A stretch of DNA of 64,000 nucleotides. It comes from Harriotta raleighana. Taxonomy: Eukaryota. The stretch spans positions 3,867,671-3,931,670 of the forward strand of contig JBNZDD010013730.1 in the NCBI GenBank assembly GCA_050575255.1. Reading direction: 5' to 3'. The notes under the pieces are model-generated. The model saw nothing but the letters and a program-made list of their open reading frames with translations. It was not told where the DNA came from and searched no databases. Shown in pieces: positions 4,776 through 7,700 of this stretch (its first letter is position 1; every line of letters starts with the position of its first letter). The translations under genes were made by a program, and so were the position numbers.

Positions 4776-7700
4776 ATGCGCCTCACTCGTTTCCTGAAGC
4801 CTCTACAAATTGCACGTTATTTTCAAAGCACAATTCTTACTTCTAAAGTGGTGAAGTTTTCCACCTCGAAGGTACGTTGCCTTTGTACCATTTACTGTAT
4901 TTTTAGATTTACCATGGTAGAATTTTAACATTTCTCTATGTGATGATGATTTTCAATTGGTTACCGATTGTACTGCATCTTATATAACGATTTTGTCAGC
5001 TGATTAATTGATTGGAGTTTAACCCTTGGAACTGTTGACACCTTCTCAGTAAAGATTGGTCTCCCTGGGCAATCCCATTTAACATCCGCATGATATTTTT
5101 TTTTGCTGTCTTATATTTTGACTGTAACATTTTCCACCTTTGAAGAACATCCCTAATAGTATTCTTTGGCATGGAAGCCATTTTCCAGTTTGATTCTGGT
5201 ATTATTTAGACATCTTAGCATCGACTCTATTGGAAGCATAAATTGTGCTATTACTTGTGTGTTCCTCCTCCCTGGGAATGCCTGTAGTTATATGCTTGAA
5301 TCCAGACCATCATATTTTACAAATAAGCCTTTCTGTTTTGTAAACCTTCCGTTCTCGACCATCAAACATATTTGTAAACATAAGTATATATATATTCTGC
5401 GTGAAAGTAATCTCTACTGAAATATTACATAAATAATAATCCTATTTATTTCAATTTACAGATGATTTCATCCAGACATAAGGGTGCAAGAAGGATTGAA
5501 GGACTGGATAAAAATGTATGGTGAGTAAAGTTCAAAGGTGTTTAGTATTTTGCTGCATACATATATACACACACAATGTGTCAGCATAAGCAAATTGGTT
5601 AGTTCATTAAAACAGCTTTTTAGTATATAACAGCTTTAGTATATAATGGGTTATTAAAACAGCTTTTTAGTATATAATGGGTTTGAGATCATATGGACCT
5701 ACATATTATTTAAATGAACTAACCAATTTGCAAATTCATAAGACTTAACGACAATTATATGAATCATTTATCTGATCTTGCAAAGAATTGCCTTCATGGT
5801 TTCCTGAGGTTTCCTGGGATTTTTTGAATTCACCATAGAGAACCTTTTGATTTTTACTCACTCACTCTCTGATTATTTGTTTCACAAAAACTTTAATTTG
5901 TTACATTTTAACAAGTGCAATCAGAAAAGTGATAGTGAATGCGGTTTCTTGACTGTGCTTCAGCTATTATTACAAGTTGGTTATTTTTGCAATGCTACTA
6001 GCAAATGTATTCCCAATTTCTGTTTTTTTCCCAATATTTTAATTCTCCTAAACACACATTCATAAACAAAAATAGAAGTTGCTGGGAAAATATTCAGCAG
6101 GTCAGGCAGCATCCATGGAGAAAGGAAAGCGAGTCAACGTTTCGGGTCCACGACCCTTCGTCAGAAATGCTGTTTATCATACAGAATCTATGAGAAATTT
6201 GAGCTATGTTAGAAAACTGTACAATTCAATAGAGAGGAAAAAACAAATATTTCTTGTTCCATTTTAACTGATGAAATTTGAAATGAAGATAAAGAATATG
6301 CATTTTTTTTATAGGGTTGAATTTTCCAAGCTTGCTGCTGAACCTGGGGTTGTCAACCTTGGTCAGGGATTTCCAGACATGCCACCTCCAAGTTACGTAA
6401 GAGAAGCCCTGGCTAATGCTGCAGTTGGTGAAAATTTTATGATGAACCAGTATACAAGATGCTTTGTAAGTTATTCTTGTCACTCTTTCCTGTACATGAG
6501 CCAATACATTTTTCTGTAACCTTTCAATCCAGTGTAGTGAGGAATATTGAATATCATAAGTGCCTCTCTGTTCAGTTGTGTGAAATCTCACTGCAATACA
6601 GATATAACCAAAGTGTCAAAACATAAATTTTCTGATATAGAAACAGGTTAAAGTTTGGTTTCTGTTTTCACCATTGAAGAATGTGTCTGGATTGTACATT
6701 GTACAGTATATTGTACAATCCAGACCCCTCCCCGCCCTTCGCTTGGGTCTGAAGCATTAACCTGTCCAGCGCCTTGGTGTGAAAGTCGCTATATAAATGT
6801 AATTTTTTGTTGTTGTTATTGCTGAACCAAATATTGCCATCAATTATCCTTTAAAATCGCTGCATGTTTTCTTAAACTAATTTCTACTGTTAAAAATACA
6901 ATCGCACAAACAGTATTTGATGAATGACAATGGTTAGGAGTGAAACAGGGATGATCTTGGTGGCAATTTGGTTTTGATCCAGTAAAATAACTGGCTATTT
7001 ATACAATGCGACCTTGGTGAAGTGTGGATTTGCTTATAGTTTGCTGGATGCAGCACACACAACTCCTGACCATGACTAGCTGGGTCCAGAGCCAAAGAAA
7101 AAAAGCTCTCCCAAGTCATCAGGTCGTACTGTTGTTATGTTTTGCACTTCCAGCAGGAAATGATTGTATTGGCCAGAAATGGGACCAATAGCCTTTTTCC
7201 CGACAGCCATGGCTCTTGTAGTGTTGTGTCTCAATGATTTGGGATTTGTAACACTGTTAAAACAGGGTTGCCATATCCAGTAGAGTTAGTAGGCTGGGTA
7301 CCCAGATACTATAATACTCTATAGGGCTTAAAAAGACTGGTTTTACCAAACAAATAATACTGTGATTTGATATTGTATTTTTCATTTGACTGAATGTCAA
7401 ATTTTACTCATTCGAAAATGTGTTTTGTCTTCTCTCACAAGGGTCACCCTCCATTAGTAAAGGCACTTGCTGAACTTTATGGAAATGTATATGGGCATCC
7501 AATTGATCCATATAAAGAGATCCTCGTAACTATTGGTGGATACGGCTCTCTGTTTAGTTCCATACAAGGTCTGGTCGAAGAGGGAGATGAGGTAAAATAA
7601 ACTTTTTTTTTCATGTCCTGTGCTTGAATATGTTACAGTGAAGTTAAGAGATGACCCATTTGTGAAACTGAATACTGTATACAGTAGTTTGTTTGCATGT

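Follow-up and report, generated by a model that had tools for sequence, protein, structure and literature searches.

The 106-bp repeat on the minus strand at positions 6064-6169 of the analyzed Harriotta raleighana DNA (a stretch of 64,000 nucleotides, termed the window here) is very probably a pseudo-LTR stub of a Penelope-like element (PLE) that carries the hammerhead motif of its family, is likely inert and probably arose by run-off of reverse transcriptase (RT) on uncut, likely capped RNA. The family itself is a minimal hammerhead of a PLE pseudo-LTR, of the kind described in 2014. For its propagation, we give slightly better than even credence to a two-part reading. The RNA would start capped at the first base of stem I, with most copies being strong-stop-like run-off cDNAs primed 100-135 nt inside, and the ribozyme would be a protein-switched remover of the cap rather than a maker of template ends, so that the genomic junctions would amount to a fossil 5' RACE.

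Structure of the hammerhead motif

The minus strand at 6168-6132 has the letters quoted in a preliminary description of this DNA and contains a minimal hammerhead fold; the features claimed there can all be read, namely an intact core with an extra A, a stem II of 5 bp, a helix III that has no loop, and GUU. The core C3–A9 (CUGACGA; 6164-6158) is intact and is followed by an unpaired extra A at 6157. Stem II consists of 5 bp with a GUG loop (6156-6152 with 6148-6144), includes G10.1–C11.1 and has a pair probability of 1.0. The GAAA sequence (G12–A15.1; 6143-6140) is also intact. It precedes C15.2-G16.2-U16.1-U17 (6139-6136), comprising the loop-less palindromic helix III and the GUU triplet, numbered by analogy with the available text on minimal hammerheads (PMC4209133). 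With U at position 17, the palindrome extends to 6 nt. Cleavage is predicted between 6136 and 6135, i.e., +28/+29 in the family numbering, in which hammerhead C3 (window 6164) is position 0.

Stem I is formed by a 5' arm at 6168-6165 and a 3' arm at 6135-6132, and 6168 corresponds to A(-4) of the family, the putative transcription start. The preliminary description considered stem I weak in this copy, and this is borne out by a U-C mismatch at 6167 (-3), where 43 of 48 long copies have G; consequently, only 2 contiguous stem I pairs adjoin the core. A strict hammerhead descriptor (at least 3 stem I pairs), the check proposed for the reverse complement, accepts the family profile and rejects the 6132-6168 copy. 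Likewise, the family has a helix I of 4-5 bp and this copy does not; in 17 long copies, the commonest pair is retained in 15-17 of 17 at each of 4 positions. The 6132-6168 motif is a damaged copy of a family of qualifying minimal hammerheads.

No Rfam hammerhead model matched at the gathering score in the whole window or at E values up to 10 in 5900-6400, and minimal hammerheads evidently fall outside these models. Folding z-scores (-0.8 and -0.9) were not significant. In the whole genome, the core pattern has 3,336 matches versus 751 for the reversed pattern (4.4 times commoner), and a 27-mer of the repeat has 1,865 exact matches versus 0 in the control, which together indicate that the motif is not due to chance.

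Repeat family and parent element

The repeat spans family positions -5 to about +98 and is without the optional 35-nt tail. Its homology covers 6064-6169 (6064-6166 should the upstream CA match by chance), close to the ends given previously (6066 and 6168). About 4 substitutions and a single 2-nt insertion separate it from the family profile; divergence of copies from the profile is about 8%. Beyond the ribozyme, the rest of the pseudo-LTR (6064-6131, minus strand) ends in a T-rich stretch at a cluster of 3' ends, a putative RT priming site. The window contains 4 family copies in total: the others are a longer, more decayed copy with a broken core (25260-25518, minus strand), one in which GAAA is broken (59706-59835, minus strand) and one consisting of the 3' part only, with no hammerhead (18041-18098, plus strand). 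Scaling from 15 matches in 60 stretches taken at fixed steps from large contigs (591,942 bases in all) gives a family size of ~28,000 copies (16,000-46,000). Short copies outnumber long copies ~5 to 1, and at positions 34 and 75 the two classes have their variant bases in common, at similar frequencies.

Some copies that are identical or nearly so lie 1.2-5 kb apart (L137, L075/L076, L064 and L405-L407); they are likely assembly duplications or tandem repeats and slightly inflate the counts. A second repeat family, found mostly in small contigs (L261, L265, L266, L269, L271, L275, L283 and L285), matches the core pattern and has no good stem II; this might be a decayed satellite hammerhead or a chance resemblance.

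In long copies, the repeat is preceded by a pyrimidine-rich 3' UTR of ~280 nt and, further upstream, by a decayed ORF in which RT motifs and a CX4CxxC linker can be recognized; the linker was read in L058 between the RT and the endonuclease. An RT protein search found 11 loci, and in 9 of them the repeat lies 740-1050 nt further downstream in the same orientation; of the 2 loci without it, one proved to be the upstream half of a different locus. In tblastn, residues 6-800 of P0012, an intact relative that has both RT and GIY-YIG domains, line up colinearly across decayed copies. The RT Pfam domain is present in 116 RT relatives and GIY-YIG in part of them, and the closest named relatives are from bamboo shark (57-59% identity). 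At four loci (L290, L291, L300 and L302, the last a partial tandem), the tail runs on into a 5' UTR and an ATG at about +168. The repeat thus occurs both downstream and at the 5' opening of the ORF, which identifies it as the pseudo-LTR of an endonuclease-positive PLE.

No intact element ORF was found, the longest open frame being 423 aa among the matches listed (150 of 155). Pfam recognized none of 7 decayed element fragments in one set, and in another set of 6 it gave RVT_1 below the cut-off in 2. The repeat is the pseudo-LTR of an old PLE, linked to the RT/GIY-YIG ORF on both sides, consistent with the earlier proposal of a PLE end bearing a minimal type I hammerhead. Judged by the linker motif only, the element could be labeled Neptune-type; a CX2-5CxxC linker also defines Nematis in the available text of Craig et al. 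(PMC8557442). The further suggestion that homology stops at the ribozyme holds for the 6064-6169 copy and fails for the family, in which homology continues both ways.

Two-unit forms (L404, L409, L415, L420, L428 and others) contain a further hammerhead 340-430 nt downstream in the same orientation, in the order hammerhead, tail, 5' UTR or ORF start, jump to the ribozyme edge and second hammerhead. Such forms might be able to fold as dimers, and they look like precursors of retrozymes. Their junctions differ by locus, except for several that recur near +395 with microhomology.

Positions at which copies begin and end

Ends were mapped in the first 100 of the 1,865 exact matches to the 27-mer, which lies outside the ribozyme; these 100 come from small contigs. 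Before 5' ends were counted, L147 (contig end) and L162 (near duplicate) were dropped, leaving 98, and each arm of an inverted pair was counted as a separate end. The 3' ends form two clusters, about +93..+101 and +129..+134, ~35 nt apart and common to short and long copies; the 6064-6169 copy ends at the first. The 5' ends concentrate at the front edge of the ribozyme, with 45 in -6..+6 (25 of them in -6..-1); -28..-7 contains 2, and the remainder lie either further upstream (15) or in +7..+43 (36). The spread over -6..+6 indicates that the start is not one sharp base, and copies starting at G(-3) number 979 versus 717 at A(-4). At the predicted cut site, 5 ends lie within 2 nt versus 4.9 expected, so that cut-site ends were rejected as the source of the short copies. 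A small bump occurs at +19..+22, at the base of stem II (10 versus 3.9 expected, p 0.004).

The ribozyme edge accounts for 17 of 29 5' ends in a second sample (including four loci already counted) and for 4 of 15 in the fixed-step sample. Among 28 distinct loci with the 5' UTR, 13 reach +6 or further upstream and 9 of these 13 stop at the edge. A head-to-head partner is present in 54 of 100 copies, an arrangement already known from PLEs. Target duplications of at least 8 nt flank 7 of 22 solo edge copies (1 of 23 was dropped for N or a short flank) versus 2.7% of shuffled pairs, and lie 0-10 nt from the edge. For the 6064-6169 copy itself, no clear target duplication was found, the longest shared stretch being 5 nt.

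A putative capped start at the ribozyme edge

The family base at -5 is C. Of the copies that start at A(-4) without this C, 377 of 717 genome-wide have G at -5, compared with 25-34% expected from base composition and with 27 of 100 (hand-counted) at a control position one base further in; A(-4) was one of several positions examined. In all 8 G copies with a duplication of at least 8 nt, the G lies outside the duplication. Two of 29 G copies are long copies with a point change. The base before the G is T in 22 of 29, a bias that might equally come from microhomology. The sequence surrounding A(-4) fits the initiator consensus. The 6064-6169 copy has C, not G, at -5. At the junctions of full-length L1 copies, an extra G is the recognized signature of a cap copied by reverse transcriptase, according to the available text of PMC11702581.

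These DNA junctions suggest the following pathway. Capped RNA would start at about A(-4) and be copied uncut, the cap giving rise to the extra G. RT may prime ~100 nt inside the uncut RNA and run off its likely capped 5' end, which would yield a 106-bp stub. The RNA of the parent element would bear the ribozyme at its very start and again near its end, and cutting at +29 would remove the cap.

Decay of copies and maintenance of the fold

Genomic copies decay about neutrally. Core substitutions number 37 versus 47.6 expected from matched bases (P 0.07). The preferential core conservation anticipated in the preliminary description is significant in an unmatched comparison (3.6% in the core versus 7.5% at other non-CpG sites, p 0.0008) and not when bases are matched, and was rejected. 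G8 and G12, which lie in CpG, are mutated in 14% and 18%, respectively. In 46 sampled core-spanning copies, the core is intact in 25, and the core, stem II and helix III together in 17.

As for stem covariation, the family itself yields single double-changes only, whereas related PLEs keep the fold with other stems. In 80 metagenome loci of such PLEs, the strict descriptor found 21 hammerheads, of which 18 lie on the ORF strand; the stems differ in sequence and yet remain paired. Where the ORF end is in view (36 loci), a hammerhead lies within 700 nt in 10 and is absent in 26, compared with 0 in 5 control passes. The fold appears to be selected between elements and hardly among genomic copies. 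Because metagenome PLEs keep the fold with other stem sequences, the hammerhead of the parent was likely functional and the stubs are left to decay.

The copy within the KYAT3 intron

The repeat lies antisense in a 794-nt GT-AG intron (5521-6314, plus strand) between two coding exons, 145 nt from the acceptor. The preceding exon occupies 5462-5520 (plus strand), and the exon at 6315 best matches solved KYAT3 (E 7.5e-15; KYAT1, E 2.8e-13), in agreement with the KYAT3 assignment and antisense placement proposed earlier. We take the gene order in the window to be KYAT3 (plus strand), GTF2B-like (plus strand, ~26100-28700) and PKN2-like (minus strand, 35100-53300), with names and human synteny presumed. 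Weak tRNA matches at 10671-10742 and 20715-20784 (plus strand; 32 and 37.5 bits) are likely heads of tRNA-derived SINEs. A GC-rich, low-complexity region at 18100-20130, with near-duplicated blocks and N runs, is likely a CpG island combined with a local assembly duplication.

KYAT3 pre-mRNA (plus strand) contains the reverse complement of the repeat and no hammerhead. In minus-strand RNA, base pairing of the core with the cleavage strand is predicted at a probability of 0.99. The hammerhead-stem probability is 1e-7 for the 6064-6169 copy versus 0.005 for the family profile, as computed from 2D energies without protein or Mg2+. There is no second intact hammerhead core within the window. In the available texts, minimal hammerheads are weak cleavers that act as dimers or together with the protein of the element; single minimal motifs gave no cleavage (PMC4209133), and an Anolis motif needed the protein of its element (PMC11167929). 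The 6064-6169 copy is likely silent. The preliminary description called activity uncertain on the basis of the weak stem I; that basis stands, and we grade activity as unlikely because of the antisense orientation relative to KYAT3, the broken stem I and the predicted inactive fold.

Alternative explanations

Keeping the same identity for the family, the 5' edge might be a splice acceptor (AG at -4/-3), an RNA-structure stop or a point of cDNA fold-back, which we consider a possible but clearly less probable origin. The edge coincides with a polypyrimidine tract and a CAG that lie ahead of the core and form a possible splice acceptor, and an intron end maps to helix I in D. virilis Penelope (available texts of PMC4209133 and PMC2377424). 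On the other hand, no spliced leader or shared upstream exon was found before the edge (1 pair of 22 solo flanks shares at least 10 nt), no upstream pseudo-LTR piece precedes edge copies, and the target duplications lie close to the edge, all of which argue against this alternative, as does the G excess at -5, absent at the next position tested. The bump at +19..+22 shows that structure can halt RT. Fold-back is suggested by the copies starting at C(-5), 12 of 17 of which are preceded by T, completing a short palindrome with the core (-5 to +3; window 6169-6161), and cDNA fold-back at this palindrome could seed head-to-head pairs. Self-priming on an antisense template is another model for inverted pairs (available text of PMC3846280).

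Short copies could also represent a separate non-autonomous element of 100-135 nt, SINE-like or retrozyme-like, borrowing the PLE protein. Their numerical excess over long copies, defined ends and target duplications would fit such an element, as would the existence of direct two-hammerhead forms and the derivation of animal retrozymes from pseudo-LTRs (available text of bioRxiv 10.64898/2026.07.22.740005). We regard it as unlikely: short and long copies share the variant bases at positions 34 and 75 and the same two 3' clusters, the edge is also where copies that extend into the ORF begin, and the two-unit junctions vary by locus apart from the microhomologous one near +395. The non-autonomous derivative of the preliminary description is therefore not needed. 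More improbable still, to the point of being nearly dismissed, is an active or co-opted ribozyme at 6064-6169 that affects KYAT3 or antisense RNA. This copy does keep both core and stem II fully intact, a state of preservation that, with helix III included, is seen in a minority of copies; an intact core is nevertheless common by chance, and the antisense placement, stem I mismatch, predicted misfolding, lack of a second intact core in the window and reported inertness of single minimal motifs all weigh against activity.

Comparison with known systems

The available text of Cervera and De la Pena (2014; PMC4209133) describes minimal hammerheads of metazoan PLEs, including fish Xena, Poseidon and Neptune. 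The present family shares with them type I topology, the extra base between A9 and 10.1, G10.1-C11.1, a palindromic 15.2-16.2 without loop 3 and a 4-bp helix I, as well as the predominance of single truncated copies and the occurrence of opposite-strand pairs. It differs in its U at position 17, in its cartilaginous fish host, which does not appear in the text available, and in abundance, with the ~28,000 copies belonging to one family compared with 4,000-9,000 motifs in coelacanth and Xenopus.

With Neptune-type endonuclease-positive PLEs (Craig et al., 2021; PMC8557442, in the text available), the element shares the order RT, CX2-5CxxC linker and GIY-YIG, together with 5' truncation, partial tandems, an inverted 5' copy, an optional 30-40 bp tail and a pseudo-LTR hammerhead; unlike those PLEs, it has no intact ORF among the matches listed. 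Its 3' clusters resemble that tail and the two internal priming sites just downstream of the hammerhead which define the tail in Anolis Poseidon PAc (Frangieh et al., 2024; PMC11167929). The accessible part of the PAc study shows no sign of cut RNA as template, uncut RNA being the main template in vitro, and both strands are extended, which fits the head-to-head pairs. The PAc ORF starts in stem II, whereas the ATG here is at about +168, and the natural RNA 5' end and an edge pile-up are not mapped in that part of the study.

Animal non-LTR retrozymes likewise have a type I hammerhead of pseudo-LTR origin (bioRxiv 10.64898/2026.07.22.740005, in the text available). They form tandem arrays with a hammerhead per unit, whereas 6064-6169 is a lone monomer, and identity as a non-LTR retrozyme was rejected for this copy. 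No account of this family or of a 5'-edge pile-up was found in the literature, with most subscription journals, Repbase and Dfam outside the scope of the search; the element is likely to have been listed before.

Implications

The 6064-6169 copy is ordinary; the pattern of the family bears on the role of the hammerhead in endonuclease-positive PLEs, which the available text of PMC8557442 poses as an open question. Should copies begin at a capped RNA end that coincides with the edge of the ribozyme, with no excess of ends at the cut site, cleavage would not make the template end, in agreement with the in vitro results in the accessible part of PMC11167929. This would provide a simple account of the abundant 100-135 bp stubs and head-to-head pairs in such genomes and would give an exact base, A(-4), for the start of the RNA.
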